DNA of 64,000 nt from Pseudomonadota bacterium (GTDB lineage: Bacteria; Pseudomonadota; Alphaproteobacteria; RF32; CAG-239): the NCBI GenBank assembly GCA_918234285.1, contig CAKJXZ020000014.1, positions 20,777 to 84,776 of the forward strand, read 5' to 3'. A program made the translations under genes and the position numbers. Positions 3,023-19,414 of the stretch are shown here, piece after piece (position 1 is the stretch's first letter; the number at the start of each line of letters is the position of its first letter). The notes under the pieces are model-generated. The model was not told the DNA's origin. It made no database searches and saw only the letters and a program-made list of their open reading frames with translations.

Positions 3023-3064
3023 AAAAACATCCGACGGGTAAAACCGATGGATGTTTTTGTTTTT
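3023..3064 (+). terminator. Intrinsic terminator
   Basis: AAAAACATCC...GGATGTTTTT then T-rich run. Confidence 0.7.
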
Positions 3065-3148
3065 ACGATGTTTTTTTGAATATTATGGTGAGTGTTTTCG
3101 GGGCTTTTAAAAAAGTTCGTAATTTTACGATTATTTTTGTCATTCCTG

Positions 3149-3177
3149 TTGACAAAACGCTTTTATTATGATAAAGT
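3149..3177 (+). promoter_or_regulatory. Sigma70-type promoter of AAA/vWA cluster
   Basis: TTGACA-17 nt-TAAAGT with extended TG. Confidence 0.65.
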
Positions 3178-3237: not shown

Positions 3238-5940
3238 ATGGCTAAAAACTATGCTTATATCGGTTCCGAGAATTGTCCTATTCCGTACATGAACGATGAC
3301 GGACAATTAGTACTTCTGCGTGATGACAATACTTATATCCGTCTGCCGGTTATGTATGACGGCACTCCTGAAGACGTTCAGGCTAAGGTGCTGGGTAAAA
3401 TGATGCGAAATTTTCCGGTCAGAAGCAGAATTAATGACTTTGTAGAAAACTTGCGTCGCCGCAGCGACAATATCGACGTCAATATTGAAAGCAGCAATAT
3501 CTTTGCCCATCGTCGTCGCGCCAAATTTATCAAAGGTGAGCCTGGACGCGGTAAAACGCACGATTTGAAAACCCTTTGCAAAATGGTGGATCCGCAAGGG
3601 GGTATTTACGTTAACTGTAAAGATCGCGACTTGAAAACCTTGATTGTGCAGACTGTTTTGGATACGTCAAATATTGATGTTGAAAAAAATGCCATTGATG
3701 CCCGTATCAAAATGTATAACAAGGGCGATAAAAGCGCTTTATCCGCTGAAGGTATTTCACTTTTGAAAACCATGTTCGATGATGCTTTTACTATTGATGA
3801 AAGCGGTAAAATTTCGCTTGATTGGAACGGTGCACGCGGCAATACATCTTTGGATTCCGCCGACAGGGATAAAGAATTCGTAAGTTTGCTACAGCAGTTC
3901 TGCAAACGTGAAAATATCGACTATTCGTACAATATCAACAGCGTCGGCTTTGTGGAAAAAGACGGCGAGTTATTACAAGCGCTTGAAAGCGGCCGTCCGA
4001 TTATCTTAGATGAAATCAACCGCGGTAAAAACCAAGACTTCCTGTTGCCGTATTTGGACTTTTTGAACGGCAGTTACGAGGATATAAAAATTGTCGGTGC
4101 CAACGGCAGAGAAGTACACCTTTCCAAGGAAGATTTACCGGATACCTTTATGTTGGAAGCCACCGGTAACCCTGAAACCGCGGAAATGGGTATTAAAGAA
4201 AAAATGAGCGAGCCGTTGCGCGATCGTTTTGATATTTCCGAAATGGCCGATTTTAATCCGAAAGATTTTACGGATATGTATTGCTCTTTGATGACCGGTG
4301 TTCCGGTTTCCATCATCAGAGATGCTTATCAGCTTGAAAATGAGGAAGACTTATCCAATGTTTGTAAGTTTTTGCGCACCGTGGGTTTGAGCAAAAAAGA
4401 AGTAGATGCAATTCCGCCGGAGCAAATGATATATCTGGACAACGTGGGAATGTTTTTGGAAACGGCAGAATGTATCGGTAAGGCTCTGTATGAGATTTAT
4501 CAGTACAAAAAGGACACGGTAATCAGCTCCAAAACCGGTGTATATTGCGAAGACCAGGTATTGCGTAAACACATCCAGGACGAACCGTACAGCTTCCGTA
4601 TTTTGGAAGATATTTGCAATCGTGCTCGGACCTATATTCCGCAACGCGCCGGCAAATCGTCCAATAACCCGTTCTTGAACTATTCATTCGCCAAGCCGTC
4701 CGGAAGCAATACCCTGCAAATGCGCTTGCGCAACCAGGGCGAAGGCTGGGAAAAGGCTATTATTGGCGCGGTTAAAGAAGTGTTCAGTTGCAAGGGAATG
4801 AATCCGGAATTGGGCGGACAGGTTTTAGGTATTGCCAATCAAATTCTGGGACGTAACGGTATCGGCGACGAAGAAAAGCTGATGGAGGCCAGAGCGCTCG
4901 ACATGCCGCGTTTGAAAGATATGTTTGATTTTCCGATTCCGGGTGAAAAGAGTACCAAGAAGGCAAGTCAGGAAGCTCTGCGCATTCAGGAAATGATTTG
5001 CAAAATGGTTCGCGAAAGATATCCTTCCAACGAATCCAAGAGCAATGATGAAATTGTCGATCCTTTCGTAATTGAAGGTGTTTTGACAACCGTCAGAGAA
5101 AATCCGTTGGATCAGCATGCTTTGCTCGGAAAAGCCATTTTGGTTAACAATGCCGAAGAAACCAACAACCAAATGCCGTTCATCAAAAACGCGGCGGTGG
5201 TGGAAACGCTCGGTACCGCTTCGCTGGTAGAAACCAAGCATTTGGCAGATGTCGATGCATTTTTGACCACGTTGACCATCGATGGCCTGTCTGAAAGCAA
5301 TTTAGGCACGATTTGGCCGAGTATTTATTCCATGGACAGAAGTAAAGAGGAACCTCTGGAAATTCTTTCCGGACGCCACAGCAAAATAGCATACAACTCG
5401 TTTATATTGAAAGATGCTCAAGATAATCCGATTGCGCTTGATATAGTTCACGTTAAAATGCCTGACGGACAGAAGGCCGGCGAACCTCATACGCTGATTG
5501 TCGGCGAGAAGATTTCTCCGGTGATGGCATTCCGTCTGAAACAAAACGGTATTACCTATATCGACCGAAACGGCGGAGATGTGGCAGAAAGCGAAGACTC
5601 CGGCAAAAAACAGAGCGTGGAAAAGAGAATCAGAGAATGGATAAACAAAGCCGAAGTAAATGCCAATGACGATACTCTGGAAGTTTTGCTGACTGGAGCT
5701 GTTGATGAAAAATTCGATATTTCCAGCGTTGGTAATGTACAAAGTCTGTTTAAGTCCGGTCTGGAAAGCCGCAATATGGATAATATGGCACAAATGACCA
5801 CGTTTACGACTTCGGAACTCGATCGCGGGGTTGATAAGGCCGAGGCCTTTATTGACGGAGACGGCTCCAGAGTAAGCGAAGAAACCGCTAAGGTATATCA
5901 GGTTTTCGCCAATTTGGAAGATAGAAGTAACGATTATTGA
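3238..5940 (+). CDS. MoxR/dynein-midasin-like AAA+ ATPase with long C-terminal extension
   Basis: Walker A GEPGRGKT, Walker B IILDEINR, sensor-1 ATGN, arginine finger PLRDRF; large insertion between Walker A and B. Confidence 0.85.
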   Translation: MAKNYAYIGSENCPIPYMNDDGQLVLLRDDNTYIRLPVMYDGTPEDVQAKVLGKMMRNFPVRSRINDFVENLRRRSDNIDVNIESSNIFAHRRRAKFIKGEPGRGKTHDLKTLCKMVDPQGGIYVNCKDRDLKTLIVQTVLDTSNIDVEKNAIDARIKMYNKGDKSALSAEGISLLKTMFDDAFTIDESGKISLDWNGARGNTSLDSADRDKEFVSLLQQFCKRENIDYSYNINSVGFVEKDGELLQALESGRPIILDEINRGKNQDFLLPYLDFLNGSYEDIKIVGANGREVHLSKEDLPDTFMLEATGNPETAEMGIKEKMSEPLRDRFDISEMADFNPKDFTDMYCSLMTGVPVSIIRDAYQLENEEDLSNVCKFLRTVGLSKKEVDAIPPEQMIYLDNVGMFLETAECIGKALYEIYQYKKDTVISSKTGVYCEDQVLRKHIQDEPYSFRILEDICNRARTYIPQRAGKSSNNPFLNYSFAKPSGSNTLQMRLRNQGEGWEKAIIGAVKEVFSCKGMNPELGGQVLGIANQILGRNGIGDEEKLMEARALDMPRLKDMFDFPIPGEKSTKKASQEALRIQEMICKMVRERYPSNESKSNDEIVDPFVIEGVLTTVRENPLDQHALLGKAILVNNAEETNNQMPFIKNAAVVETLGTASLVETKHLADVDAFLTTLTIDGLSESNLGTIWPSIYSMDRSKEEPLEILSGRHSKIAYNSFILKDAQDNPIALDIVHVKMPDGQKAGEPHTLIVGEKISPVMAFRLKQNGITYIDRNGGDVAESEDSGKKQSVEKRIREWINKAEVNANDDTLEVLLTGAVDEKFDISSVGNVQSLFKSGLESRNMDNMAQMTTFTTSELDRGVDKAEAFIDGDGSRVSEETAKVYQVFANLEDRSNDY

Positions 5941-5951
5941 TGCAAACAAAA

Positions 5952-5981
5952 TCGGTATCAGCGGAACAACGCTGATACCGA
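5952..5981 (+). other. Perfect 12-bp intergenic hairpin
   Basis: TCGGTATCAGCG-gaacaa-CGCTGATACCGA, no adjacent U-tract. Confidence 0.75.
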
Positions 5982-6020
5982 CGTGATTTTCAATAATTTG
6001 GAACAGAGAGGTAAGGAATA

Positions 6021-6326
6021 ATGAAAAAAGATAAAAAATTGGATATAATTTCCAGCGAGATGTTTTTGAAACAAATTTTATCCGGTCCGTATGAAACCGT
6101 CGGTACCTGTCGGGTGTTCAGTATTGACCGCGAAGCGGATATCAAAGAAGCGGCTCGTTCCGACAAAGTTGCCGTATGTGCCGATATTGCCGCATTTAAG
6201 CAAAATTTGGGAAGCGATAATGTTCCGAATGTTATGATTTCACAACATTTGTTGAATAAGACATTGTTGACACAGTTGGCAGAAGCATCTTCGGCCGAAA
6301 AAAATATTATATGGATTAACGACTGA
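6021..6326 (+). CDS. Small hypothetical protein resembling a C-terminal domain of the upstream ATPase
   Basis: SD (AAGGA) upstream; co-linear motifs ILSG / ADIAAFK / PNVMI / NIIWIN versus ILSG / LDIVHVK / PHTLIV / GITYID in the ATPase. Confidence 0.7.
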   Translation: MKKDKKLDIISSEMFLKQILSGPYETVGTCRVFSIDREADIKEAARSDKVAVCADIAAFKQNLGSDNVPNVMISQHLLNKTLLTQLAEASSAEKNIIWIND

Positions 6327-6343
6327 TAACCAGGAGTAGTGGC

Positions 6344-9300
6344 ATGGATAACGCCTATAAATCTGCTGATGAAATTATGCATAAACCGTTTGCACCTTTG
6401 CGTATGGAGACGAGTGAAAAGTTTTTTGCGCAAAAGCTGACGATGACAGATTTCACCGAATTGAGCACCAGAATGTTGCAAGCCGCACAACTTATTCCGG
6501 ATATTTCCGTATCGAATCTCGGTATTGAAATCAAAAAGGCTTATGAGTTTTTGAAGACCGGTAAGTGTGAGGAATATCCGGATATTAAGGATCCGGCACA
6601 ACAATATGTTTGGGGTATGGCACTGGCCTGTTCCGAATGCGACCCGCAAATTCGCGCCCGCTGGCAGGAACCGGAAAAACATCAGCCGATTTATAAACTG
6701 GAAGTCTGGGATAAATTAAAACGCAGCGCACCGGCAATCAGTGAGTTGCGGCGTCATGCTTTTATGGTCACGGAAATGCCGTTCTTGAAAGAAGATGTCG
6801 AACTTAAATGGGGTGCTTGCAACTATCCGAACGTGGGTTTTTATTTTGACCCGCAAAACAATATGATTAATCTGGATTTGGTGTGGGCGCTTATCGGCGG
6901 TTTCGAACATTCGCGTGCGGCTCAATTACATGAAATCGGACACAGCCGCGGTACTTTGAAATTTACGCGCAAGCTCAATGAGTTGAAAAAAACGTATGAC
7001 GAGCTCAACGAAAAGGCGCGCAAGCGTACCATTACCAAGGAAGAATATAAGAAACTTAAGAGTGTGGCGCGCGAATATCAATTTCGTTTTTCCATTTTTG
7101 ATGAGGCGGAAAACAGCTATGCCAATCGGTTTGCGGTAAATGCTTTCGATTACGGTATGGTGCGTCAAGATGTCGGTTATGACTTGAACTCAATTGAAAC
7201 TCAGCTGTTCAGCGTCGGCTCTGATATTTTAGCAAATCGTAAGGAGCCTAAGTTACCGCAAGATACTCCGGCCAATCGTGCTTATAACTTTAAGCGGGCA
7301 TTGCGTTTATCTTTCCATGTCAATAATGACATTATTGAGGACAACGTAAAAGGCTGGCAGGATTTGGGTGTCAATGTCGACTGGATAGAATATACCGATG
7401 ATAACGGTAAGGAAATTAAGGGCGTCGAGGCGCTGAAAAAATTGCGCGAAATGGCGACCCGTCTGGAGAAATTGCAGTTAAGCGAACGCGACTATCATAA
7501 GCCGCAAAAGCAGATTATTAAACTGTTTGAAGAATATTCGCAAAAAAGATGCGATGTGATTGATGAAATATTCGAGCGTTTTGCCAAGAGATATTATGAC
7601 CAGACCAAAGAACAGGAACGCGAGGACGGAAAGCAACAGGGGCCAAACGGTAGAGATGGACAAGGTGGTCAACCGGGCGGACAAGGTGGTCAATCGGGTG
7701 GACAAAGCCAAGGCGGACAGGGCGGTCAACCGGGCGGACAAGGCCAAGGCGGGCAAGAGCCGAATGAAAACGAAAATGATTCGCATCAGGGCAAAGATAA
7801 TTCCGGTGATAAAAATGATTTGCCGGGAACCGACCAAGAAGACAATAAAGTTAATGAAGACGGAGCCGGCGGCGATGGCGACGAGAAGGATAAATCCGGA
7901 AAAGGCGGCGATGGCGACGAGAAGGATAAGTCCGGAAAAGGCGGCGATGGCGACGAGAAGGATAAATCCGGAAAAGACGGCGAAGGCGACGAGAAGGATA
8001 AATCCGGAAAAGACGGCGAAGGCGACGAGAAGGATAAGTCCGGAAAAGGCGGCGAAGGCGACGAAAAAGGCAAGGGTCAAAAGTCGGGTAAGGATCATGA
8101 CGATTTGCCGGGTGTCGGCGAAGGCGATGACAGAAGCGGCGAAGACGCACAGAATAACAAAGGCAAGAAAAAGTCCAAACCGCGCGCCGGCAGTGACGAA
8201 GAAAGAGCAGAATTTGTGGATAGTTTCGACCAAAAAATTTCCGATGAAGATCTGACACCGGAGAATATGGTGCCGCTGGAAGATTTGCCGGAAACTCCGG
8301 AAGAGCTGTATAAGCAGTTGATTGAGGCCATAATGGATGGCATTAATGACGGCGAGGGTATGGACGCCACGGATATTATTCGTATGTCGCCGGAAGAAGA
8401 ACAGGAAAACTGCGAAAAAGAATATTCCGAAGACAACAGCGACCATAAGCGGCAGGAATCTTCCAAGCATAAAAAAGTTAAAAGCGACACTGCTGCCGTA
8501 TCGTACGAGTTGCCGAAGAAACTGCTGAAAGAAAACGAATATCAGAAGATTATCGGCAAGCATCAGGGAACTATCGAAAAATTGCGCAATAAGTTTATTG
8601 AGCTGCAAAACAAATATTATGACTATGTTCCGGATCAGGATGTTTTGGCCAGCATTCCGGATGCCGGCGATTTACGGGTAGATATTCCGTCATATATCGA
8701 GCGGCTCAAGAAGCAGGCTATGGGTGAAGAACTGAAAGAAAAGGATTTCGAAAACTATATCATCAGCTCCGAAGCCAGAGAAGAAACCAAAGCGCCGATA
8801 GATGTTGTTATCTTGATTGATAACTCCGGCTCGATGACATATGATAATATGGATAAGACGGCGATTGAAATCGGTTGCTGTTTGTTCCAGGCAACGCGCG
8901 ATAATCCGGCATTTAACGTATATGTCGAGATGATGCATAATCCGGTCACGTGGATTGCCAAACCGGGCGAGAACAGCATAGAAATTTCGCAGCGCTTAGC
9001 CACTGTTATGCACAGTGAATGGTACGGTGACGATAAAATCGGTGCGTGTATTGAAGATACCATCAAAGAGGTGAGCAAGCGTGACCCTGCCTCCAGCCAC
9101 GAGGGTATGATAAACTTCTTTATGATTACCGACGGCGGACATACCGATGGCGGAAGCTCCTTTGAACTGGTGGATAACATTGTTAAGAGTGATTTGCCGA
9201 TTACGTTTAACTGGGTACTGACCGAATCGTTCGCAGAAAGCTATGTTGAGGATCTGATTAATGCACATCGTACCGGTACCGGAGGCAAGCGCATTGACTA

Positions 9301-9463
9301 TGTTGAACATGTGGACGGTGACAACGTTTTGGAAAAACTGGTACCGATGATTGAAAAGCGGGTGGAAGATGCCATGCATATTTCGGCGCAGAAAACCAGC
9401 GATAAAAAAATGGATTTGAATACTTTTATAGAAAAGAAAGGACGCGGTGATTACGATGGTTAA
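6344..9463 (+). CDS. vWA (MIDAS) domain protein with N-terminal HExxH metallopeptidase-like region and acidic low-complexity linker
   Basis: QLHEIGH plus downstream DEAEN; G/Q/D/E/K-rich linker; DVVILIDNSGSM and FMITDGG MIDAS motifs. Confidence 0.85.
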   Translation: MDNAYKSADEIMHKPFAPLRMETSEKFFAQKLTMTDFTELSTRMLQAAQLIPDISVSNLGIEIKKAYEFLKTGKCEEYPDIKDPAQQYVWGMALACSECDPQIRARWQEPEKHQPIYKLEVWDKLKRSAPAISELRRHAFMVTEMPFLKEDVELKWGACNYPNVGFYFDPQNNMINLDLVWALIGGFEHSRAAQLHEIGHSRGTLKFTRKLNELKKTYDELNEKARKRTITKEEYKKLKSVAREYQFRFSIFDEAENSYANRFAVNAFDYGMVRQDVGYDLNSIETQLFSVGSDILANRKEPKLPQDTPANRAYNFKRALRLSFHVNNDIIEDNVKGWQDLGVNVDWIEYTDDNGKEIKGVEALKKLREMATRLEKLQLSERDYHKPQKQIIKLFEEYSQKRCDVIDEIFERFAKRYYDQTKEQEREDGKQQGPNGRDGQGGQPGGQGGQSGGQSQGGQGGQPGGQGQGGQEPNENENDSHQGKDNSGDKNDLPGTDQEDNKVNEDGAGGDGDEKDKSGKGGDGDEKDKSGKGGDGDEKDKSGKDGEGDEKDKSGKDGEGDEKDKSGKGGEGDEKGKGQKSGKDHDDLPGVGEGDDRSGEDAQNNKGKKKSKPRAGSDEERAEFVDSFDQKISDEDLTPENMVPLEDLPETPEELYKQLIEAIMDGINDGEGMDATDIIRMSPEEEQENCEKEYSEDNSDHKRQESSKHKKVKSDTAAVSYELPKKLLKENEYQKIIGKHQGTIEKLRNKFIELQNKYYDYVPDQDVLASIPDAGDLRVDIPSYIERLKKQAMGEELKEKDFENYIISSEAREETKAPIDVVILIDNSGSMTYDNMDKTAIEIGCCLFQATRDNPAFNVYVEMMHNPVTWIAKPGENSIEISQRLATVMHSEWYGDDKIGACIEDTIKEVSKRDPASSHEGMINFFMITDGGHTDGGSSFELVDNIVKSDLPITFNWVLTESFAESYVEDLINAHRTGTGGKRIDYVEHVDGDNVLEKLVPMIEKRVEDAMHISAQKTSDKKMDLNTFIEKKGRGDYDG
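7868..8068 (+). repeat. 36-bp coding tandem repeat (about 5.5 copies, GGDGDEKDKSGK)
   Basis: Near-identical units ggcggcgatggcgacgagaaggataaatccggaaaa. Confidence 0.92.
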
Positions 9464-10820
9464 GATTACGGATACGATAGAAATCCATGACGGTGTAGCG
9501 CTGATGATCGGGCGGCACGATGATGCCTACGGTCCGAATATTACGCCGCGCGGCGCGATGTTTGCTTATGCCATGGGCAAATACGGAGCGGAATATTTCA
9601 GAATCGATCCGCCGGAGATGATTGTGCATTCGCCGGTATCGCGGGCACGTAATACGGCATTGATGCACCGTAACACCATGATTTTCAACGAGATGGGTAA
9701 TCCGGAAATGTCGACGGATATGCGCCTGCATGAAAAAGCCGGTGGTGAGATGATGTGTCTGGCGGCGGAAGAGGCCATTCGCTATGCAGGGAATATGGGT
9801 TATAAAACCGTTGAAATTATCACTCACTCCGATTCTCCTTTCAGTATTGCCCAACATTTCGGCGGTTATAACAGCAGCGGCTTAAGCTACGGCGGTATGG
9901 TAGTGCTTAAAGCCGACAACTGGGATGATATGCTGAACAAAAAAACATACGGACAGTCATTTGTTAACAGTTCGCAAGAATTGGCGCGCGTAGTTTTGGG
10001 TAATTTGGCGGTTGATGTACTCAATGTTATGAGCATGCCGGATAATTCGTCGTATGTGGATGCATTACACAGAAATGAAGAAGCGCGAGAAATTTGGCGA
10101 AAAGCCGGCATACAAGATTATTTCGGACTTGAGCAAAAGCTTAATGCGATTATTCAGGCCAAAGCAAAAGAATCGCCGGAATGGCTTATAAAGGCGCTTA
10201 ATGGCGAAGAAGTCGAATCGGTGGTGGCGCCGGATGAGTTTATGCAAATGTATGATGCCTATAAATATTGGCTGCAAAATATGGCACTGGCAGTCGGAAT
10301 TAATCCGTGCGAATCGACCGACAGTCGGTTGTATGATGAAAACGGTAAATTCAGATATATTTGGGGCAGCACGCAATCCAAAATGATGGACAAACTGGGG
10401 GGACTTAATAGGCGGGTGCGTACGCTTTCGGCGGCACTTTCCGATGATGACCAAGATTATCTGTACCCGATTTTGAATGCGGCAGTACAAAAAATGGAAG
10501 GCAAACGCTATACGGAGCGCAAGGCCAGAGTGGCCGGGCATGCCGGCAGTATCGGTCTTAATGTTCCGGGATATACCGATATGATGCAGCCGGAGAAGTT
10601 CAGCCCGGAATTTGATTCGGGTAAGAAGGATTCTTATAAGAGGGAAGAAACCGAGGACCATCCGCTGTTGCACGCCTTGTTGGCGGCCAGAATGCGGGCG
10701 GTGGCACGTAAAGAAGCGGCAGAAAAGGCGGAGGCGCAAAGAAGCGCTCCGACACCGAGCGGAAACGCTCCGTCGGCGGCGGATATTGCTTTGAATAAAG
10801 GCGGCAACGACGGGAAATAA
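9456..10820 (+). CDS. Histidine-phosphatase (SixA/PGM-like) N-terminal domain fused to unknown helical region
   Basis: LMIGRHD, HSPVSRARNTA, RLHE and IITHS match the RHG / SPxxRAxxTA / LxE / vxH signature. Confidence 0.7.
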   Translation: MVKITDTIEIHDGVALMIGRHDDAYGPNITPRGAMFAYAMGKYGAEYFRIDPPEMIVHSPVSRARNTALMHRNTMIFNEMGNPEMSTDMRLHEKAGGEMMCLAAEEAIRYAGNMGYKTVEIITHSDSPFSIAQHFGGYNSSGLSYGGMVVLKADNWDDMLNKKTYGQSFVNSSQELARVVLGNLAVDVLNVMSMPDNSSYVDALHRNEEAREIWRKAGIQDYFGLEQKLNAIIQAKAKESPEWLIKALNGEEVESVVAPDEFMQMYDAYKYWLQNMALAVGINPCESTDSRLYDENGKFRYIWGSTQSKMMDKLGGLNRRVRTLSAALSDDDQDYLYPILNAAVQKMEGKRYTERKARVAGHAGSIGLNVPGYTDMMQPEKFSPEFDSGKKDSYKREETEDHPLLHALLAARMRAVARKEAAEKAEAQRSAPTPSGNAPSAADIALNKGGNDGK

Positions 10821-10845
10821 TATTATATAGATAAGGAGAACGGTA

Positions 10846-13800
10846 ATGGCCGAGCACAAGTGTATTGAATTGAACGAAAAACTCACAGAAGACGGGCTCT
10901 TTAATTTTTACACCTTGTATGATATAGATGATGAAGAATTCGGCTATCTGAAGAAAGATAAATTCTATTTGGATGCGGCCAAGAAGACCTTTGATATAGC
11001 CAATTATGCCGAGAGAGAAGACCCGGCCGATGAAGTTGCCTTATTGAAAACAGCCAGGTGGAAGCCGGAGAAAGAGGATGACGGTCATGCCATTTCCGAA
11101 TTGTTTGATGCCGAAAGTATTCTGCGCGAATCGGTTAAGCGCGACGGCGGTAAGAATTTCACCAAACTTCTTAAAGAGGAAATGGAACATGATAATTATC
11201 TCCCTGTCGAATATTTAGAATATTTGGCTCAGCATGAATTTGCCGCCGAAATATTGGCCGCAAATCCGGATATTGTTGCTGCCGCAAAAGAATCGTTCAA
11301 TGTTTATAATTGCGGTTTCAGGGCTAATTATGCTGTATTTGAAACCAGCATGAAAAACTATGCGGAGAAACTCGAAAAAATTGCCGACAGTGAGGTGTTT
11401 AAGCCGTATTTTGACGCGCGACGACAAATAGAAGAATCGCAAAAATTAGATAGAAACGATGCTTGGGCGAAGGGATTGGCGGCATCGGAGAAAAGATTGT
11501 CTTTCATTCAATTGGAAATTTATTTTAATGAAATTGTTAAGGCTTTACCGACGCATCCGGAGTTAATTCCGTTGGTGGCCAACAGTCTTAATGTTAAGCG
11601 CAGTGACTATCCTTCTGATTGGCATTACGACAGCGACTTTGAATCCGCCAAGGAAGAAGCCAAAAAATTAAGAGAATCCGGCAAGTTGACCTATGAATGC
11701 TATGTGGCCGCCATGAAAGCCGATAAGCTGGAATATGCCGAGTTTAAGGACCGCGAGGAAATCATCAAAACATATTTGCAGCAAAAGGATTTGAATATCT
11801 TTGAACTCAAAAATTGTCTGGAGATTAACAGTCAAATTACCGAGGAATTTATCCGCAGCGTTCCGGAAATTCGCGAGCGGGTGGAAAAGTTGTTTGAGAA
11901 TCCGCGCAATTATAAAGTGCAGGAGCAATTTAACGATTCACCGACGCTCAATAAGTTTTTTAATGTGTCGGAAAAGTTGGCTGTTGCCGAAAAGAATTTG
12001 CGCAAGATGAGCGGCGGCGAAGTGTTTGATATTTTAACGCAAAGCGTAAATGATATCCCGGAAGCGCGCGAGGCGAAGCGACAAATGCTGATGCTGCAGA
12101 AATATTTCAACCAAACGAAAGGTTTGAGCGAATACAGCCCGGGGGCGGATTTGTATAATTCCTATTATAATGACGGCAAACGCTGGGGGAGTTTGAATCC
12201 GCTGCTTAACGATGTCGGCACTTATAAATGTTCGCCGGAAATGGCCGCGGTTTTGGAAGAGCGTATTGCCCGCATATTTGCCCATCATAACTATCACGAC
12301 ATACCGCGCCATGTGGCCAGATACAGCTTTATAAGCGGTGCCGGAATGGAGCATTTTGCCAAAGAGATGACAAAGGCACTGATTAAAAATCCGGATTCTT
12401 ATCAATCCAAGTTTTATTTGAAATATTCGCAATATGTGTTGAATCAATGGCAGCAATTCAAGAGCTCTTACGGAGATATGGCGACGAAGGTGGTACCGGA
12501 GATGATTAAAAGAGGGCGCCTCGACATTTCTGAAAAGATTTTGTACGATATGAACACGGCAAGAGGCAGAATAAAGGAATGGACGTCGGAAAATATGAGA
12601 AAAGAGCTGAAGAAAGACGTCAACTCGCCGGTTTCCAAGTATTATCTGGAGCGAATCGAATCATACTTCCCAAGTACCGAAACTTTGGCCGAGGTGGTCG
12701 CGGATTTTGTGGCCGCGGATAAAGGTAAGCATTTGCCGGAAACCGAAAGATTGTGCAAGGCGCTGCTGAAGTTATATAATCATAAAGGCATCATGAAAGA
12801 AAATGCTTTAGAATTTGAAAACAGCTTACTTGATATCTATCAGCACCATAAAGATGCCGACATAGCCGATATGTTAGAAAAGAACAGTAAAGACATTGAA
12901 ATCAAAGAAGACAAGAGTAAGCAGCTGTTCGAGTATTATGAAAAATGGCAACATATCGGTTTGAAGGGCTTCGAAAATGTTGTCGATAAGATTTTGGCCG
13001 AGACCAAGGAGCTGCATTTGAGCGATGCGGCAAAACATGGCAAAAATATAGATTTTACCGCACTGCACGAGAAATTTAAAACGGCCGGGATTGAGGAAAT
13101 CGAGTGTGACTGCAAAGTATCCGAATTGAAGCAGTTGATGCAAGGACATCCGCATTTGAGAAAAATTACCATAAGCTCGAAGGCGGGATTGGATGACATA
13201 CCGGAAATAATCGCCGGTTGTCCGAATTTGGAAGAAATACGACATTATACTGACGGAAAACACAGCAAGCAGGACACACAGAAGTTATATGAGTATCTGA
13301 TGACAAGCCGACCGGAAAGATTATTTGACGTTGACTATACATTCACATATGAACAAGCCCGAAATCTGATGGAAAAATATCTGACGCTGACGGTGGAAGT
13401 CAAATACGGCGAGAGTAAAGAATATGAGGCGCTGATGGAGTTACGCAAACGCAATGAGCATATTCGAGAGATTTTTCGCGGTTATAATATGGATGGCGAT
13501 GAGGCAAAAATTACCGATGACAAAACACTTAAAAAGGTGATTCAAAGCAAAGGTTTGGCGGAGTGTCTGGAGATTATACCGGAAGAAAGACGTCCGAGTT
13601 TTGAGAAGCTATGCAGTTCGATGGACGGTTTCCATGACGCGGTTAAGAAAAGTTACGGCAACGCGTATAGCAAAGTTATTGCCAAAGTTGCAGGTTTGAC
13701 CGGTGCCGTCGATTTCAAAAACGAGATAGAATTGCGGCAGGCAATCGCCAAAGATAAGGTTATGGAATTTTTGAACGGATTTGCCGATGATAAGCGACCG

Positions 13801-14079
13801 AACGTTAAGTTGCTGAACGGACATCAGGTTGACGACGCTACGCCGTTTGAGAACTTGGCCAAGAAAAAGAAAAACCGGGTGGAATTGGCGGCGGTAATTG
13901 AAGCCTTTAGGCCGAGCGATAATGATTTGGACGCTTTGGCGGCCGGTAGCACTGCCAAATCAACTTTGCGCGGGGTGGTTGAATATGTTAAATCAGAGCG
14001 GCAGGAAAAAGTCCGGAAAGAAAAGGAAAAAGCCAGGTTTGCACAGTGGAAGGCCAAAAATATTCGTGACGATAAATAA
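10846..14079 (+). CDS. Large hypothetical helical protein with short LRR-like segment (paralogue A)
   Basis: 1077-aa ORF with SD; alignable with next ORF; HPHLRKITI..CPNLEEI LRR-like strands. Confidence 0.8.
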   Translation: MAEHKCIELNEKLTEDGLFNFYTLYDIDDEEFGYLKKDKFYLDAAKKTFDIANYAEREDPADEVALLKTARWKPEKEDDGHAISELFDAESILRESVKRDGGKNFTKLLKEEMEHDNYLPVEYLEYLAQHEFAAEILAANPDIVAAAKESFNVYNCGFRANYAVFETSMKNYAEKLEKIADSEVFKPYFDARRQIEESQKLDRNDAWAKGLAASEKRLSFIQLEIYFNEIVKALPTHPELIPLVANSLNVKRSDYPSDWHYDSDFESAKEEAKKLRESGKLTYECYVAAMKADKLEYAEFKDREEIIKTYLQQKDLNIFELKNCLEINSQITEEFIRSVPEIRERVEKLFENPRNYKVQEQFNDSPTLNKFFNVSEKLAVAEKNLRKMSGGEVFDILTQSVNDIPEAREAKRQMLMLQKYFNQTKGLSEYSPGADLYNSYYNDGKRWGSLNPLLNDVGTYKCSPEMAAVLEERIARIFAHHNYHDIPRHVARYSFISGAGMEHFAKEMTKALIKNPDSYQSKFYLKYSQYVLNQWQQFKSSYGDMATKVVPEMIKRGRLDISEKILYDMNTARGRIKEWTSENMRKELKKDVNSPVSKYYLERIESYFPSTETLAEVVADFVAADKGKHLPETERLCKALLKLYNHKGIMKENALEFENSLLDIYQHHKDADIADMLEKNSKDIEIKEDKSKQLFEYYEKWQHIGLKGFENVVDKILAETKELHLSDAAKHGKNIDFTALHEKFKTAGIEEIECDCKVSELKQLMQGHPHLRKITISSKAGLDDIPEIIAGCPNLEEIRHYTDGKHSKQDTQKLYEYLMTSRPERLFDVDYTFTYEQARNLMEKYLTLTVEVKYGESKEYEALMELRKRNEHIREIFRGYNMDGDEAKITDDKTLKKVIQSKGLAECLEIIPEERRPSFEKLCSSMDGFHDAVKKSYGNAYSKVIAKVAGLTGAVDFKNEIELRQAIAKDKVMEFLNGFADDKRPNVKLLNGHQVDDATPFENLAKKKKNRVELAAVIEAFRPSDNDLDALAAGSTAKSTLRGVVEYVKSERQEKVRKEKEKARFAQWKAKNIRDDK

Positions 14080-14091
14080 GGAGTGCGTAAC

Positions 14092-17000
14092 ATGGATAAT
14101 TATAAATTATGGAAAAAATTAAAAGATCAGGCGGCAAAACAAGGGTATGTCGATTATATCGGCTTTCTGCATCTTGATACCGACTTTATTAATGAAAAAT
14201 TGCCGAAAGATGCGCAGATGTTGGAGGTAGTTAAGAAAACTGTCGATATTGCCACCTATGATGATACGGAAGAAGGTGTTGATGAATGCCACTTATTAAG
14301 TATGGTAGAAATTGCCAAGAAATTTTGCAATGCCGAGGAAATTTTTAACGAATCGTTGCAAAAAGACGGCGGTAAAAATTTGGAAAAACAGTTGCGCCGT
14401 GGGGCAAAAGCACAAGGCGGCTCTTCCGGTTTTTTATACGATATGATGTACTATATAGGAGATAATCCGTTTTTTGATAAGGTATTGGCGGAGAATCCGG
14501 ATATAGTCGAAGGTTTGAAAAAGTATTTTGATGTAACCATGAGCGGGTTGACGGGTGATAAAAAATTAGATGACGAGCTGGAAGAAGATTATATTAGTTC
14601 GGTTATCAAGATTGCCGACAGCGGAAAATTGGCGCCGTATTTTGACGCATATGCGATAATGAACGCTACAATGGAATTAAACGAAAAAGAGAAGTTTTTG
14701 CGTCGTATGCAAAATTCAGCCGCTAGACATGACGGAAAGTTGACGCCGGGAATACTTAAAAAACGTATAGATGAAATTTTGAAAGCATTGCCGGAGCATC
14801 CGGAGATTCTGCCGATAATTGAAAAGAGCTTTGTTTTGGACAGTAAGGAGAAGCGTAGAGAAAGATACAAATACACCGACGACGATTCTGCATATGAGTA
14901 TGTAAATGAATCATATGAAGCAGATGAAACAGCGCTCGCAACAATTTGGGAACGCGGGTTGCTGAATGAGTTCTTCAACGTTGAAAAAGCGTTGGAACAC
15001 GGCAAACTCGGCGGCAAAGAGGGTTTGGCTTATGATGATAAGGAACGAATTGTCAATTTATATTTGCAGCGCGACGATTTGAACATATATCAGTTGCGAG
15101 CCTGTCTGGCAATTAGCCGAAGCGCGACGGAATGGGCGATTCACGACCATCCGGAAATCAAAGAGCGTGTCAATAAAATGCTGGAAGGTGCTCAATCGTA
15201 TAAGTTGTTGCAGAGCTTTGCCGACGATGCTACCCTGAATAAGTTTTTTGATATGAAAGAAAGATTCGAGCGCTCGGCCGAGGCGGTGCAACAGCTGAGC
15301 GGCAAGGAAGTATATACGATTTTTACCACGCCGGAAAGCGAAATTCCGGAAGCGGCGGAGATGAATCGGCAATACCGGATAATTAAAAAATATCTCGAAC
15401 AAACCAAGGATTTGAGTAATTACAGTTTTAATGACGATTTGTGTTACACCAGTTTTCGTAAAGACGAACGTTGGGTCGAAGACGGCGGGCTGAACGAGCT
15501 TTTGCAAGATGCCGGCACCTTTAAGGGAGCGCCGGAAATAACGCAAATGGTCGATGAATGTATCGGTCGGATTTTCGCTCACTATATCTATGATACTCAG
15601 GGCAGAAAATCGCGGTTTAACTATATAAGTACGTGCGGAATTGATGAGTTTGCCAAGAACATGAAAGAAGAAGTAACAGCCGACCCGGATTCGCCTAAAG
15701 CGCAATTTTATTTGAAGTATGCCTCGATAGTATTGGACCAGTACACTTCGTTCGACCGTACGTATATTGAGACGGCTGCGGTTTTGCTGCCGGAAATGGC
15801 AGAAAGAGGTCGGTTTGACGTTTGCAAACAAATCTTTATGGGGATGAAACAGGCGGACGGATATTACAGCGGTGCCAACACCTGGTGTTTGGAAAATATG
15901 CAAAAAGTGCTGTCGTCCGCGGAAACCGAAAAGCCGCTGTTTAAGTTTTATTTGCAAAATGCCAAAGAATTTTGTTCGACAATCGACCAATATTTGGAAT
16001 TTGCCGCGGTACTCGTCGGCAAAGATATGAATGCGCATCCGGAAATCACCGCTCAATTGGGCAAGGAAATCGGCGAGATGTATAAAGAAATGACGCCGGA
16101 AAATCCGCAAAAATGTGCCGATAAACTGGCGCGTATTTATCAATATTATCCGGCGCCGGAATTTGCCGAGATTATTGCCGAGGACAGCAAACCTTTGGAA
16201 CTGAAGGAAGAAAATTTGTGCACGTACTACACCAATTGGATATGTACCGGTCAGCAGAATTTTTCGGACGCGGTGGAACGTATCCTGGCCAGACAGGGAA
16301 AGTTTGTTTATGATCCGCAGGACGGTATTGATTATAAGCCGTTGTTGGAGCGGATTAAGCAGTCCGATATTAAGGAAATAGTAGTGCGTAAGCTGTTGCC
16401 GTCGCAAGATACCGATTTTGCCCTGAGCGGTTATAAAAAGCTGGAAAAGATAAATTTCGGTGATTGCGTGGGTGTAATCAATGCCGAGGCGCTGTTTGAT
16501 AATCCATCCTTGAAGATAATTGAAAAAGAATACGACGGGAAGATTACCGTTAATAATCTGGAAAAGCTGTTTGGTGATGCTTTGCCGAGTTTGGAGGAGT
16601 TCAAACTGCGGCCGACGGTTATACCGGAGCAGGAAGAAGCATTATATAATCTTTTGATGCAGCAAAAACCGGAGAGCTTGCACACGTTATGTTATGACTT
16701 TGCTAAAGAAAAAGCCATGAATCTGATGTACAAAAATATACTGTTGGTGGTGAACAGCCAAAATATGGATACCTATCGTGATTCTCTGATATCGCGCAAC
16801 GAGCAGTTTATCAGCTTCCATAAAGGTGAGAGGTCGTTGGAGCAACGCTATGTACTGGATTACGCGATTAGTGACAAAAGATTGGTCGAAGCTTTGTCTG
16901 TCATACCGCCGGAAAAACGGCCGACGTTGCAACAGATGGAGGAAACGTTTGACTCCGAAAATCCGAACAAACTGCATGAGCGTATCAAAGAGAGTTACGG

Positions 17001-17442
17001 CGAAGACCGGTATCAGGAGGTTATACAACAAGTGAGGAATTTGACGGCCGGCAATGAAGTTAAATTGAGTCTTGATTTGCAACTGGCTTGTCGCAACCAC
17101 GTGTTCATCGAACATCTGCGGGAGCTGCCGGCGGAGAAGCGGCCGAAGCTTTCCGAACTGTTTGCAGCCGTTAACTCGCAAATTATCAATGGTACTATTG
17201 CCGATAATTTGCTCGGAGAAGACGGGAAGGCCAACCGAGAAACCTGGCAGCGAATCATTGATATATTGAAGCCGAGCGACGAAGAAATCATTAATACGAC
17301 CAAGATGAAAAAATGTTCCGCAGAAATGAAGGAAATACTTGACAGTGTGCGTACGTTGCGCAAAGATCTCAAAGAGATGGTCGTAAAAGAAAAGCGACGT
17401 TCCGCTTTCGAAAGTTGGAAGAAAAACAATACAAAAGATTAG
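14092..17442 (+). CDS. Large hypothetical helical protein with LRR-like segment (paralogue B)
   Basis: SD AAGGAG before ATG 14092; shared blocks with paralogue A (DGGKN, KALPxHPE, DLNIxxL, TLNKFF, RIFAH, FYLKY). Confidence 0.8.
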   Translation: MDNYKLWKKLKDQAAKQGYVDYIGFLHLDTDFINEKLPKDAQMLEVVKKTVDIATYDDTEEGVDECHLLSMVEIAKKFCNAEEIFNESLQKDGGKNLEKQLRRGAKAQGGSSGFLYDMMYYIGDNPFFDKVLAENPDIVEGLKKYFDVTMSGLTGDKKLDDELEEDYISSVIKIADSGKLAPYFDAYAIMNATMELNEKEKFLRRMQNSAARHDGKLTPGILKKRIDEILKALPEHPEILPIIEKSFVLDSKEKRRERYKYTDDDSAYEYVNESYEADETALATIWERGLLNEFFNVEKALEHGKLGGKEGLAYDDKERIVNLYLQRDDLNIYQLRACLAISRSATEWAIHDHPEIKERVNKMLEGAQSYKLLQSFADDATLNKFFDMKERFERSAEAVQQLSGKEVYTIFTTPESEIPEAAEMNRQYRIIKKYLEQTKDLSNYSFNDDLCYTSFRKDERWVEDGGLNELLQDAGTFKGAPEITQMVDECIGRIFAHYIYDTQGRKSRFNYISTCGIDEFAKNMKEEVTADPDSPKAQFYLKYASIVLDQYTSFDRTYIETAAVLLPEMAERGRFDVCKQIFMGMKQADGYYSGANTWCLENMQKVLSSAETEKPLFKFYLQNAKEFCSTIDQYLEFAAVLVGKDMNAHPEITAQLGKEIGEMYKEMTPENPQKCADKLARIYQYYPAPEFAEIIAEDSKPLELKEENLCTYYTNWICTGQQNFSDAVERILARQGKFVYDPQDGIDYKPLLERIKQSDIKEIVVRKLLPSQDTDFALSGYKKLEKINFGDCVGVINAEALFDNPSLKIIEKEYDGKITVNNLEKLFGDALPSLEEFKLRPTVIPEQEEALYNLLMQQKPESLHTLCYDFAKEKAMNLMYKNILLVVNSQNMDTYRDSLISRNEQFISFHKGERSLEQRYVLDYAISDKRLVEALSVIPPEKRPTLQQMEETFDSENPNKLHERIKESYGEDRYQEVIQQVRNLTAGNEVKLSLDLQLACRNHVFIEHLRELPAEKRPKLSELFAAVNSQIINGTIADNLLGEDGKANRETWQRIIDILKPSDEEIINTTKMKKCSAEMKEILDSVRTLRKDLKEMVVKEKRRSAFESWKKNNTKD

Positions 17443-17464
17443 AAATTATTCGGGAAGGTAAACA

Positions 17465-18577
17465 ATGGATTTGAGAGTATATTATAACAGTTACGGGCAA
17501 AGGGTGCCTTTGGGAGTTTTATCTGACCGTGATGAGAGATATATTTTTGAGTACGATGCCGGGTTCGAATACAGAGAAATCGATGTGTGTCCGTTGTTTC
17601 CGTCAGCCGAGGTGCTAAAGATAAAAGGCACTAGAAATATGTTGCCGTGTTTGTTTTGGGACTTTTTGCCGTCGGGGTTTAATGCCGAAGTTTTGTATAA
17701 ATTGAGTTCAGCGACAATTCCGCTTTTGAAACAGCTGGCAATGCACGGCCGACGCGGTGTCGGCGCATTGGAGTTTGAGCCGGAACTGGCTTATAATTAC
17801 GAAAAAATACCGGTTGATTTGGATATGATGGAAAGCGATATCCGTTATGAAAACAATTTGAGCCGGCAGTTTCGTTTGTCCGCAGGTATTGCCGGGCATA
17901 CGCCGAAAGTCGCGGTCAGAGTTTCAAAGGATAAGCAACAAATTTATGAAGATACCGACGAAGAAAATTTTGCCGATTGGATAATAAAATTGCCGTCGTC
18001 GCGGAAAAATCCGCTGGACGGGGTGGCCGAGTATGTTTATAATAAAATGGCAAAAAAGGCCGGTATTACCGTGCCGCAGTTTCATCTGTTTGATTCAAAA
18101 GCGGCGGCCGGATATTTCGGCAGCAAGCGTTTTGACTATCAAAACGGCGTAAAGCGCCATGTTCTTTCCATCGGCTCGCTGATGAACAAAAACTATTTGT
18201 TTGAAAGAATTTACCTCGGTTATTATACGGATATTGTTAAAAAAATCGCGCCGGAAGAAATAGAAAAATTGCTGAGATTACTGATATTTGATTTGAAGAC
18301 CGGCAATGAAGATATTCGCGGCAGGGGGATTTCCATGATTTTGACCGAAGAAAATAAGTGGATTTTGGCGCCGGCTTATGGTTTGGTGCCGTTCTCTTTG
18401 GAAAATGATTATACCCCAAAAATGCTGAAGAAAGATTACGAAAAAGATGCCGTCGATGCGCTTATTTATGATTTGTGCGAAGCGGCGGAATTTGACTTTG
18501 GTGCAACCGCCGAAATGATTGTACAGGTTGAGGACGCGGTGGCCAGTTATTCTCGTCTGAGTTTGGAACTTAAATAA
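17465..18577 (+). CDS. HipA-family kinase-like protein with degenerate catalytic motifs
   Basis: HipA N-terminal block (YIFEYD, FWDFLPSGF, GVGALEFEP), GxxPK loop, WIIKLP, FGSKRFD; GNEDIRGRG and LAPAYG replace GNxDxHxKN and LxPxYD. Confidence 0.85.
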   Translation: MDLRVYYNSYGQRVPLGVLSDRDERYIFEYDAGFEYREIDVCPLFPSAEVLKIKGTRNMLPCLFWDFLPSGFNAEVLYKLSSATIPLLKQLAMHGRRGVGALEFEPELAYNYEKIPVDLDMMESDIRYENNLSRQFRLSAGIAGHTPKVAVRVSKDKQQIYEDTDEENFADWIIKLPSSRKNPLDGVAEYVYNKMAKKAGITVPQFHLFDSKAAAGYFGSKRFDYQNGVKRHVLSIGSLMNKNYLFERIYLGYYTDIVKKIAPEEIEKLLRLLIFDLKTGNEDIRGRGISMILTEENKWILAPAYGLVPFSLENDYTPKMLKKDYEKDAVDALIYDLCEAAEFDFGATAEMIVQVEDAVASYSRLSLELK

Positions 18578-18646
18578 ATTATATCTGTTTATCAAGATGT
18601 TATGTACCGCCGGAAGAGGATCCTTGTCGGTAAAGGCAAAAATATC

Positions 18647-18674
18647 TTGACATTTTTATTTTTGGAATTATCGT
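18647..18674 (+). promoter_or_regulatory. Promoter of NAD salvage operon
   Basis: TTGACA-16 nt-TATCGT, which would place the start site near the first hairpin at about 18681. Confidence 0.55.
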
Positions 18675-18679
18675 AGAAT

Positions 18680-18793
18680 TGTTCTCGGTGCTTGCAGGGC
18701 TTATAGGCAGAGAACATTATAAAACCGAGCCGGTTTAATGAGATGAAAGTATTTTTATTTTGTTAGCGGCTCCTGTTTAAAGGAGTTTTTTTT
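18680..18793 (+). promoter_or_regulatory. Candidate riboswitch/cis-regulatory RNA, copy 1
   Basis: Hairpin with CAGGGCTTA loop; GAGCC(G) can pair with the loop or with CGGCTC; GGCTCCT/AGGAGTT hairpin plus T run covers the SD. Confidence 0.65.
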
Positions 18794-19336
18794 ATGAGTA
18801 AATATAAGTATAAACACGGTTTTTGCATTATGCGTGCCCAGCCGTTTCATATCGGGCACCAAAAAATCATTGATCAGATGTTGAAAGAATGTGAGCGCGT
18901 AACGGTGGCTCTGGGGTCGATTCAGGAACAAGGGACGGCGCGTAACCCGCTCAATTATACTACCCGCAAGAAAATGATTCAGAATATTTATCGCGACAAG
19001 CCGGAATACGAGCGGCTCAAAATCATCGGGCTGTTTGATATCAATAATCCGGCAGAGTGGGGAGATTTTGTGGTTGATTTCTTGAAAGAAAGTTTTCCGG
19101 ATTTACCGTTGCCTGAGGCCTATTATGCCGGTTCGGAATATGACGCGCACTGGTTTAAAGACCATTTCAAACATATTGTGTTGGTAGATCGTACCGATCC
19201 GAATTTTCCGTTTGTGACAGGGACTATGGTGCGTGATATGATTAAATTCGGCGACAAGCGTTGGAAAAATTTTGTGGCGCCGGAAAATCATCATCTGGTG
19301 GAAGAACATTTTAATAAGAAAAAAGGTATTGTTTAA
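18794..19336 (+). CDS. nadM: NadM-like nicotinamide/nicotinate mononucleotide adenylyltransferase
   Basis: RAQPFHIGH, LGS...RNPL...RKKMI, VTGTMVR; first gene of NAD salvage operon. Confidence 0.8.
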   Translation: MSKYKYKHGFCIMRAQPFHIGHQKIIDQMLKECERVTVALGSIQEQGTARNPLNYTTRKKMIQNIYRDKPEYERLKIIGLFDINNPAEWGDFVVDFLKESFPDLPLPEAYYAGSEYDAHWFKDHFKHIVLVDRTDPNFPFVTGTMVRDMIKFGDKRWKNFVAPENHHLVEEHFNKKKGIV

Positions 19337-19343
19337 TTTTACG

Positions 19344-19410: not shown

Positions 19411-19414
19411 AATT

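Follow-up and report, generated by a model that had tools for sequence, protein, structure and literature searches.

A block of seven genes at positions 3238-18577

The window analysed here is a 64-kb stretch of contig C14 of G000, a 2.0-Mb alphaproteobacterial genome in 71 contigs, and its subject is a block of genes that appears to encode an ATPase-adaptor machine together with very large repeat proteins. Seven co-oriented and closely spaced genes had been proposed here from the sequence alone, and all seven open reading frames (ORFs) were found on the + strand, where they fill positions 3238-18577. They encode, in order, an AAA+ ATPase of Pfam family AAA_5 (3238-5940, 900 aa), a small protein (6021-6326, 101 aa), an adaptor ending in a von Willebrand factor A (vWA) domain (6344-9463, 1039 aa), a predicted histidine phosphatase (9447-10820, 457 aa, or 454 aa from the ATG at 9456, which is the likely start), two giant proteins, A (10846-14079, 1077 aa) and B (14083-17442, 1119 aa), and a HipA-like protein (17465-18577, 370 aa). 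The ORFs are tightly spaced, the successive gaps being 80, 17, -17, 25, 3 and 22 nt. All seven proteins are acidic and soluble; none has a signal peptide, and on the Kyte-Doolittle scale no window of 19 residues exceeds 1.44. For brevity, the ATPase, the small protein and the adaptor are called the trio, and the products of the four genes downstream of them the cargo.

The trio is a conserved core and the downstream genes are a detachable module

The block is conserved in three of the 283 genomes of the order. G001 carries the same seven genes between the same flanks. G003 carries six of the seven in the same order, at 45-69% identity, with a single giant (giant B has no counterpart there) and with a glycosyltransferase gene upstream, not the lipoprotein gene. 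The co-occurrence expected of these genes in relatives was borne out: giants were found in 3 of the 283 genomes, solely beside the ATPase and always adjoining the trio, all three genomes having the cluster. An orthologous HipA-like gene (E <= 1e-229) likewise occurs in these three and in no others. Among 401 genomes sampled from the class, giants were present in one, G000 itself.

The trio also occurs without the four downstream genes, in G564 (locus L010), in G613 (L011) and on a metagenome contig (L014). Over positions 5877-6152 of L014, a HipA fragment of 75 residues comes after the adaptor stop, with a NadD-like gene next; a deletion has removed the genes for the phosphatase and the two giants, together with the first 173 HipA residues, and has left the trio intact. 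The trio is a conserved core, and the phosphatase, the giants and the HipA-like gene form a detachable cargo module, which is the main new result of this analysis. The original prediction had treated the seven genes as one system; the linkage kept in G001 and G003 agrees with this, and the trios devoid of cargo in G564, G613 and L014 do not.

Between G000 and G001, the ratio of nonsynonymous to synonymous substitution rates (dN/dS) lies between 0.08 and 0.39 for the seven genes, indicating purifying selection on all of them. The cargo evolves faster than the core: the ratio is 0.08 for the ATPase, 0.11 for the small protein and 0.13 for the adaptor, against 0.33 for the phosphatase, 0.29 for giant A and 0.39 for giant B. 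The HipA-like gene stands at 0.16, and the neighbouring Lon, HU and MerR genes at 0-0.02.

ATPase homologues were found in 27 of the 283 genomes. The majority form a second subfamily, whose identity is about 27-31% across the initial ~450-520 residues. This subfamily is present in 20 of 36 genomes of the sister genus, with the gene order adaptor, ATPase, small protein, and TrkH and PMT_2-type genes lie upstream in four of its loci, in conserved synteny. Second-subfamily trios have unrelated cargo in G438, G467, G627 and G254, and profiles of the giants, the phosphatase and the HipA-like protein found no match among the neighbours of the second-subfamily loci. The cargo downstream is fast-diverging and often paired (527 + 613 aa, 597 + 736 aa, 1052 aa). 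The members of the pairs in L043, L044 and L046 share a ~95-residue N-terminal module followed by unrelated C-terminal parts, with no Pfam match; the module looks like a docking or adaptor domain. In G564, four tandem paralogues of ~300 aa with leucine-rich repeats (LRRs) stand beside the trio in divergent orientation.

Such loci could also be explained by two unrelated units sharing one variable hotspot, namely a stand-alone trio chaperone whose client is encoded elsewhere and an independent module of phosphatase, giants and HipA-like protein. The trio alone in three loci would be expected in that case, as would the strong hairpin after the ATPase gene, the variability of the neighbouring nicotinamide adenine dinucleotide (NAD)-salvage genes and the presence of a phosphatase paralogue on another contig, C46 (all described below). 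Yet across the 283 genomes the giants and the orthologous HipA-like gene are never found away from a trio, there is a 17-nt overlap between the adaptor and phosphatase genes, and no gap after the small-protein gene exceeds 25 nt. Moreover, the gene order is kept in G003 despite its different upstream neighbour, and LRR proteins recur both beside the trio and beside the phosphatase paralogue. We regard two unrelated units as distinctly unlikely. We prefer to read the block as one accessory unit in two parts, a remodelling core of MoxR-vWA type and a detachable cargo of repeat-protein clients or sensors with a phospho-switch, and give this reading a probability of about 50%.

The ATPase, the small protein and the hairpin between their genes

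The ATPase matches AAA_5 with an E value of 1.2e-9 (38.8 bits against a cut-off of 22), and the same family is matched by 14 of 14 homologues. Its Walker A motif (GEPGRGKT, residue 100), its Walker B motif (IILDE, 255), its sensor-1 Asn (in ATGNP, 308) and its Arg finger (in LRDRF, 327) are intact. Residues G100, K106, T107, D258, E259, N311 and R330 are invariant in 14 ATPase sequences that are 49-89% identical. An insert of ~150 aa separates Walker A from Walker B and an extension of ~550 aa follows at the C terminus, neither with a family match. The Pfam Mg_chelatase family is matched merely at E 0.2, and in 3 of the 14 homologues. Searches for relatives in the PDB, by sequence profile or by single sequence, gave nothing meaningful.

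In each of the 13 aligned loci, the gene for the small protein comes directly after that for the ATPase. The protein is kept in every related locus, with an identity of 94% in G001, 63% in G003 and 35% in G564 and G613. The second subfamily has counterparts of ~104 aa with which it can be aligned (13 sequences), and BLAST finds two of these at E 3e-5 and 3e-6. It has no match in Pfam, NCBIfam, PHROG or PADLOC.

Between the ATPase and small-protein genes, the hairpin scan and RNA folding revealed a stem-loop on the + strand (5952-5981) with a stem of 12-13 bp and a weak T tail. Its folding free energy is -24.8 kcal/mol (z -6.1), and none of 200 shuffled sequences was as stable. It is conserved in G001, with two compensatory pair changes, and absent from G003, where the two genes overlap. 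The block had been described as lacking a clear internal terminator, a statement that this strong conserved hairpin leaves only partly true. The hairpin could serve as an attenuator or a stabiliser, and may set the ratio of the ATPase to the downstream products.

The adaptor has a zincin-like head and a C-terminal MIDAS domain

The adaptor consists of a zincin-like head, a low-complexity linker and a C-terminal vWA domain carrying the MIDAS (metal ion-dependent adhesion site), with nothing C-terminal of the vWA domain. In the head, the motifs HEIGH (196-200) and FDEAENS (252-258) are invariant in an alignment of six orthologues. The combination of HEI[GA]H, (F/L)DExEN 55-65 residues later and DxSGS was found in 10 of 10 adaptors, from both subfamilies. 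The MIDAS comprises DNSGS (826-830) and TDG (929-931), and D826, S828, S830, T934 and D930/D935 are invariant in the six orthologues. Pfam VWA is matched by all six adaptors below its threshold, at 18.3-21.8 bits against 23.8 (E 0.0029 for the copy in the window). The head had no Pfam family at E <= 1 in any of the six and no match in the PDB. In the protein Atlas the head fell into unnamed clusters and one in which 20% of the members have CobT (score 0.90), which we take as a lead only.

The linker, at about 425-700, is first rich in Gly/Gln and then in Asp/Glu/Lys/Gly; over residues 425-700 it contains 21% Gly, 16% Asp, 13% Glu and 11% Lys. Part of it is encoded by a 36-bp tandem repeat on the + strand (7868-8064; 5.5 copies, 96% matches), which specifies GDGDEKDKSGKG units. 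Each adaptor orthologue has a different number of repeats and a linker of different length, and contigs from four public short-read runs break within this repeat. The AAA_5 match, the DNSGS...TDG motifs and the linker composition confirmed the proposed pairing of an AAA+ ATPase with a vWA partner bearing an acidic linker and a MIDAS.

The giants are paralogous solenoid-LRR proteins

Giants A and B, which had been taken for paralogues, are indeed so, with 31% identity over 1117 columns (E 2e-144). The AlphaFold2 model of giant A (mean predicted local distance difference test score, pLDDT, 79.3) shows an alpha-solenoid over residues 1-720, an LRR stretch at ~720-860 made of four to five beta-alpha units, and a helical tail. 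When this model was compared whole with the PDB in Foldseek, a search by which sub-domain enzyme folds are neither claimed nor excluded, it matched generic solenoids alone (karyopherin/HEAT-type and ankyrin), with template modelling (TM) scores of at most 0.2. Against viral models (BFVD) there were likewise generic matches only.

An exhaustive HMMER search of 1.84 billion representative sequences identified 53 relatives of the giants at E <= 0.001, 19 of them at E <= 1e-30. The weaker matches cover the LRR stretch only and are F-box-type LRR proteins, and each of the 14 true relatives scanned was without a Pfam domain. Compared with its G001 counterpart, giant A has diverged fastest in residues 700-900, the LRR part (68% and 56% identity). 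A repeat-protein theme recurs among these loci, in the LRR paralogues of G564, in their homologues on contig C46 (see below) and in the paralogous cargo pairs of the second subfamily.

The likeness of the giants to karyopherin-type solenoids, the match of the LRR stretch to F-box-type LRRs and the small genomes and gut or rumen habitat of these Alphaproteobacteria would suit eukaryote-like HEAT/LRR effectors whose target is a host or protist and for which the ATPase pair serves as an export or unfolding chaperone. The structural matches, at TM <= 0.2, are however generic for solenoids, the proteins have no signal peptides or hydrophobic segments, and Pfam scans found no secretion-system genes in the 64-kb window. 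We consider host-directed effectors very improbable, and favour clients or sensors of the core as the role of the giants.

The phosphatase belongs to the SixA-like branch

The phosphatase combines a SixA/PGAM-like N-terminal domain (~10-180) with a poorly modelled helical extension of ~280 aa. Its catalytic core, of the form R-H...R...(E)...H, is made up of R20, H21, R63, E93 and H124, which are invariant in eight of eight homologues. The AlphaFold2 model has a mean pLDDT of 58.5, with mostly 65-90 in the N-terminal domain. Structural comparison (VIA) of this model gave SixA (4hbz) with a Z score of 12.5 and a root mean square deviation of 2.6 A over 148 residues; other SixA structures followed with Z scores of 11.9 and 11.4. 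The top 45 rows all belonged to the histidine-phosphatase superfamily, the protein phosphatase PGAM5 among them. Foldseek agreed on the superfamily (E 2.6e-4, TM score on the target 0.60-0.73).

By sequence, no Pfam family, His_Phos_1 included, was matched at E <= 0.01, NCBIfam gave dPGM_arch alone (E 0.022), and a profile search of the PDB gave nothing meaningful. One homologue carries the source label 'histidine phosphatase family protein', and a histidine phosphatase cluster of the protein Atlas, at 0.86, is a lead only. With its invariant core and the match of its modelled fold, the protein can be placed in branch 1, the SixA-like branch, of the histidine phosphatase superfamily, in agreement with its original designation as a phosphatase.

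On another contig of G000, C46 (L050, 93-3333), a 422-aa paralogue of the phosphatase, 33% identical, lies beside genes for two proteins of ~213/273 aa, which are homologous (44-64% identical) to the tandem LRR paralogues of G564. There is no ATPase or adaptor gene on this 7.4-kb contig.

The HipA-like protein is probably a pseudokinase

The HipA-like protein matches Pfam HipA_C (E 1.8e-24, 87 bits) and Couple_hipA (E 6.3e-6, 27.1 bits), both above the cut-offs, and its nearest solved relatives are HipT and HipA. Its catalytic loop, at residue 280, reads GNEDIRGRG, compared with GNEDMHLKN in the aligned HipT (PDB 8ezr). In three of three orthologues the loop is GNEDIRG(R/G/T)G, the His, Lys and Asn of the canonical GN.D.H.KN being lost. 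By comparison, GNKDDHSKN and PAYD are kept in all three standalone HipA relatives examined from the same bacterial family, in which related canonical HipA genes are patchy (29 further genomes of the 283). The copy in the window has in addition Gly306 (GGT, 18380-18382) in place of the Mg-binding Asp, with PAYG where G001 and G003 have PAYD. This may be a further, lineage-specific inactivation.

Because the catalytic motif is degenerate in the three orthologues and the window copy lacks the Mg-binding Asp, a pseudokinase is a likelier description of the protein than a toxin or a regulatory kinase. Of its first description as HipA-like and kinase-like, the domain assignment stood and the kinase activity became doubtful. 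The gene is under purifying selection despite the lost loop.

We considered whether the gene forms a canonical hipBA module. It shares HipA_C and the HipA N-terminal domain with the HipA proteins of hipBA and hipBST. Unlike them, it has GNEDIRGxG in place of GN.D.H.KN and stands at the end of a seven-gene operon, and no adjacent gene encodes a DNA-binding antitoxin; its neighbours are giant B and a cytidylyltransferase-like gene, with no ORF for a helix-turn-helix protein between. A canonical hipBA module was rejected on account of the lost catalytic motif, the replaced Asp and the missing antitoxin. The classical target of HipA is GltX. As a separate observation, a gene for a class I Glu/Gln-tRNA synthetase directly follows the second-subfamily trio of G254 (L045, 12966-14657), which may be plain housekeeping adjacency.

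The HipA domains bring up an abortive-infection or anti-phage system, in which the giants would sense an invader, the core would free or switch on the HipA-like protein so that it acts as a growth-arresting kinase toxin, and the antidote or reset would be the phosphatase. HipA kinases are the toxins of toxin-antitoxin modules (hipBA/hipBST; PMC8262856) and MoxR-vWA pairs head predicted conflict systems (PMC7159879). The patchy accessory distribution (3 of 283 genomes), the position of the block in a variable region downstream of the HU and MerR genes (see below) and the fast evolution and duplication of the putative sensors point in the same direction. HipA function has been lost in two lineages, through Gly306 in the window and the deletion in L014, as would be expected of a costly toxin. 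On the other hand, the loss of His, Lys and Asn from the loop of all three orthologues, when the three standalone relatives keep them, makes kinase toxicity doubtful. No PADLOC system, no adjacent DNA-binding antitoxin and no link to a phage or plasmid were found, and none of the third components of known MoxR-vWA ternary systems was identified. The trio is, furthermore, frequent (20 of 36 genomes) and syntenic in the sister genus, more like a resident function. A toxin-based anti-phage system is in our view unlikely, and we retain the two-part remodelling unit as the preferred explanation.

Borders and genomic setting of the block

Upstream of the block lie Lon-like, HU and MerR genes and then a gene for a 139-aa lipoprotein-like protein. 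The latter is followed on the + strand, at 3024..3067, by a terminator-like hairpin with a T-run, a perfect 9-bp stem AAAACATCC/GGATGTTTT and then TTTTTGTTTTT, which was read directly from the sequence and is not listed by the hairpin scan (its loop exceeds 8 nt). It probably terminates the lipoprotein-like gene and marks the 5' border of the unit. The promoter-like site noted ahead of the block was found at 3149-3177 on the + strand (TTGACA, 17 nt, TAAAGT, with a TG extension; 10 of 12 matches). It is a consensus match only, of a kind barely enriched in the region (41 sites compared with 32.1 +/- 6.5 in shuffled sequences). The consensus scan placed a second such site downstream of the HipA-like gene (18647-18674). 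We considered the Lon-like gene as a member of the unit and rejected it: it is 98.7% conserved, with a dN/dS of 0.015, and the HU, MerR and lipoprotein-like genes intervene.

The downstream neighbours form, according to Pfam, an NAD-salvage set: a cytidylyltransferase-like gene (NMNAT/NadD-like) and genes for an isochorismatase (PncA), an NAPRTase (PncB) and an NAD synthase (NadE). This set and a 679-aa protein without a clear family occupy 18794-24486, inside the same variable region as the block. The region extends over about 2400-24800 of the window, since in G020 the MerR gene is directly followed by a homologue of 24900-25553 and the NAD genes lie on another contig. Among five cluster-less relatives searched, the MerR gene is present in all five and a NadD-like gene in one, on a different contig from MerR.

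From 25 to 64 kb the window contains housekeeping genes, among them HflX, MurG, Sua5, RecJ, RecO, ParC and LeuRS. Two further large ORFs on the - strand, at 50131-52821 (896 aa) and 31664-33232 (522 aa), were without an above-threshold Pfam family. The window was seen to contain neither integrase nor transposase nor phage genes, and there were no mobility genes near the block; the annotation also shows no tetrapyrrole, Rubisco or NOR genes nearby. Contigs from four public DNA runs (two studies) cover the block, one of them spanning 8021-19133 with 155 differences, and none of these contigs contained a deletion joint across the cluster.

Comparison with known MoxR-vWA systems

The combination of genes had not been recognised as a described system, and database searches agree: six of the seven proteins have no PADLOC family and the seventh has a 16-bit match only. 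Scans of the seven proteins against NCBIfam and PHROGs gave nothing above threshold. A megablast comparison of the 15-kb block with plasmids gave no match. Neither the adaptor nor the ATPase had a tblastn match in 50,697 phage records, and no relative turned up when viral contigs were pattern-scanned using alignments of the giant and of the ATPase. Full-text literature searches (main texts, supplements aside) did not find the combination described. The cargo combination of solenoid-LRR giants, SixA-like phosphatase and HipA-derived pseudokinase is undescribed, and the core is a variant, itself new, of a known type of MoxR-vWA machine.

The closest architecture is that of CobS-CobT-CobN, CbbQ-CbbO and NorQ-NorD. 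According to a 2026 preprint (10.64898/2026.10.09.757910), the N-terminal domain of the CobST adaptor docks on the small domains of the ring, a flexible linker follows, and a finger of the vWA domain enters the pore on ATP binding. The MIDAS is presumed there to face the large subunit, and CbbQO and NorQD are said to work alike. The block shares with these systems an AAA_5-type ATPase, a partner made of N-terminal domain, linker and C-terminal MIDAS vWA domain, and adjoining genes for proteins of ~1100 aa. It differs in having no CobT, CobT_C, CbbQ_C, CobS-specific or CobN-Mg_chel Pfam match, an ATPase about three times longer (with the 150-aa insert and the 550-aa tail), an extra subunit of ~100 aa, an HExxH in the adaptor head, and large proteins of alpha-solenoid/LRR type, not CobN/BchH-like. 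Membership in CobNST or the class I chelatases was rejected, the family models being unmatched and the large proteins of the wrong fold.

With midasin/Rea1 the block has in common the order of elements, AAA_5 motor, acidic linker and MIDAS domain, which is a likeness of layout only; it has one AAA module on a separate chain, not six fused, and shows no sequence relation beyond AAA_5. A split midasin/CobST arrangement had been suggested for the block. The architecture upholds the comparison, and the missing CobT- and CobS-specific matches and the giants, which are not CobN-like, limit it.

In group 2.2 jumbo phages, a MoxR ATPase and a metallopeptidase-vWA protein form a pair that has been proposed to combine remodelling with proteolytic processing (PMC7824862). 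The arrangement described there, an N-terminal HExxH head, a floppy linker, a vWA tail and an AAA+ neighbour, is that of the adaptor. The block is, in contrast, cellular and chromosomal, and it includes repeat-protein cargo as well as a third subunit of small size.

Kaur et al. 2020 (PMC7159879) described MoxR-vWA ternary conflict systems whose third component is VMAP, iSTAND, FtsH or a beta-propeller, with mostly alpha-helical variable regions proposed as sensors and with most kinase domains disrupted in their catalytic residues. The block resembles these systems in its MoxR-vWA core, its variable, diversifying partners and its catalytically disrupted kinase domain. Theirs, however, carry C-terminal effector domains on the vWA protein, whereas here a zincin-like head comes first and the vWA domain is itself C-terminal. 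As its conserved third component the block has a protein of ~100 aa, the variable partners are separate genes, and the hosts are small-genome gut bacteria, while the paper stresses multicellular lineages. Pfam models of STAND, FtsH and propeller domains, in libraries without a VMAP model, had no match in the seven proteins. Membership in the four described ternary systems was rejected, since architecture and third component differ.

Such comparisons also suggest a dedicated chaperone for the assembly or maturation of a large structure or enzyme, as with NorQD, CbbQO, CoxDE or virus tail assembly, with the giants as scaffold. Known MoxR-vWA pairs mature clients encoded nearby (10.64898/2026.10.09.757910) or take part in virion assembly (PMC7824862), and the synteny of the second subfamily with the TrkH and PMT_2-type housekeeping genes in the sister genus would fit. 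There is, however, no metalloenzyme or structural operon adjacent to the block, close relatives differ in their cargo and can do without it, and the giants are without a recognisable enzymatic or filament-forming domain. An assembly chaperone is therefore improbable, and we return to the two-part unit of remodelling core and client or sensor cargo.

Discussion

In the present work, we have established the gene content, motifs, folds, linkage, selection and modularity of the seven-gene block. By analogy with related machines, we infer ring formation, contact of the MIDAS with a client, zincin activity, gating by phosphorylation and a biological role. The ATPase would form a ring on which the adaptor head docks, the vWA domain engaging the pore as described for CobST. 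The MIDAS would grip an acidic residue of the client, which the adaptor would thereby tether, and the zincin head might process its targets by cutting clients or the adaptor's own linker. The giants would be opened, assembled or cleaved by the core, as its clients or as partners that sense ligands. The phosphorylation state that gates this action would be set or read by the phosphatase and the HipA-like protein, as a switch or a scaffold.

A role in surveillance or conflict is plausible, and is favoured because the block is patchily distributed and its repeat proteins evolve fast and are duplicated. One may go further and suggest, tentatively and with considerable doubt, that small-genome gut Alphaproteobacteria have a modular surveillance system not described so far, built around the trio. 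Its sensors would be repeat proteins that are interchangeable and diversify rapidly (solenoid-LRR giants, tandem LRR proteins of small size, cargo pairs with the N-terminal module), which the trio would load, open or cleave; the readout at the present locus would run via a switch of pseudokinase and SixA-like phosphatase. This would be a fifth type of MoxR-vWA conflict system, with a logic like that of nucleotide-binding LRR receptors (NLRs) laid out on separate polypeptides.

Several points weigh against the two-part unit or against its proposed role. The description of the ATPase as MoxR/dynein-related, and its placement in the MoxR clade, derive from the AAA_5 match and the vWA partner. The zincin-type head is a motif-based assignment, made from HExxH and the downstream Glu motifs alone, with no Pfam or PDB match. 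Since the trio persists without the cargo, the latter need not be its sole or main client, and the two could lie side by side through sharing a hotspot; one paralogue of the phosphatase was found away from any trio, on C46. No enzymatic output or effector was identified in the block. As regards conflict, PADLOC-DB 2.0 contained no family for 11 of 12 proteins scanned, and for the HipA-like protein merely PDC-M03A (E 0.0012, 16.4 bits). Finally, the synonymous substitution rate (dS) between G000 and G001 is 0.28-0.55 for the seven genes, equal to that of the flanks (0.35-0.56), which suggests vertical descent in this lineage and not recent transfer.

MoxR-vWA pairs are widespread, and few of them have a known client. 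In this block the probable clients are encoded alongside and change between close relatives, which amounts to a natural experiment on the re-aiming of an ATPase-adaptor core. The conserved third subunit of ~100 aa is absent from described MoxR-vWA pairs. Further points of interest are a HipA fold kept under purifying selection without its catalytic loop, and a partner that resembles protein phosphatases. If the conflict reading is true, MoxR-vWA systems of immunity type would extend to unicellular gut bacteria with reduced genomes; if it is false, the locus would still be a tractable model for the recognition of clients by MIDAS adaptors.

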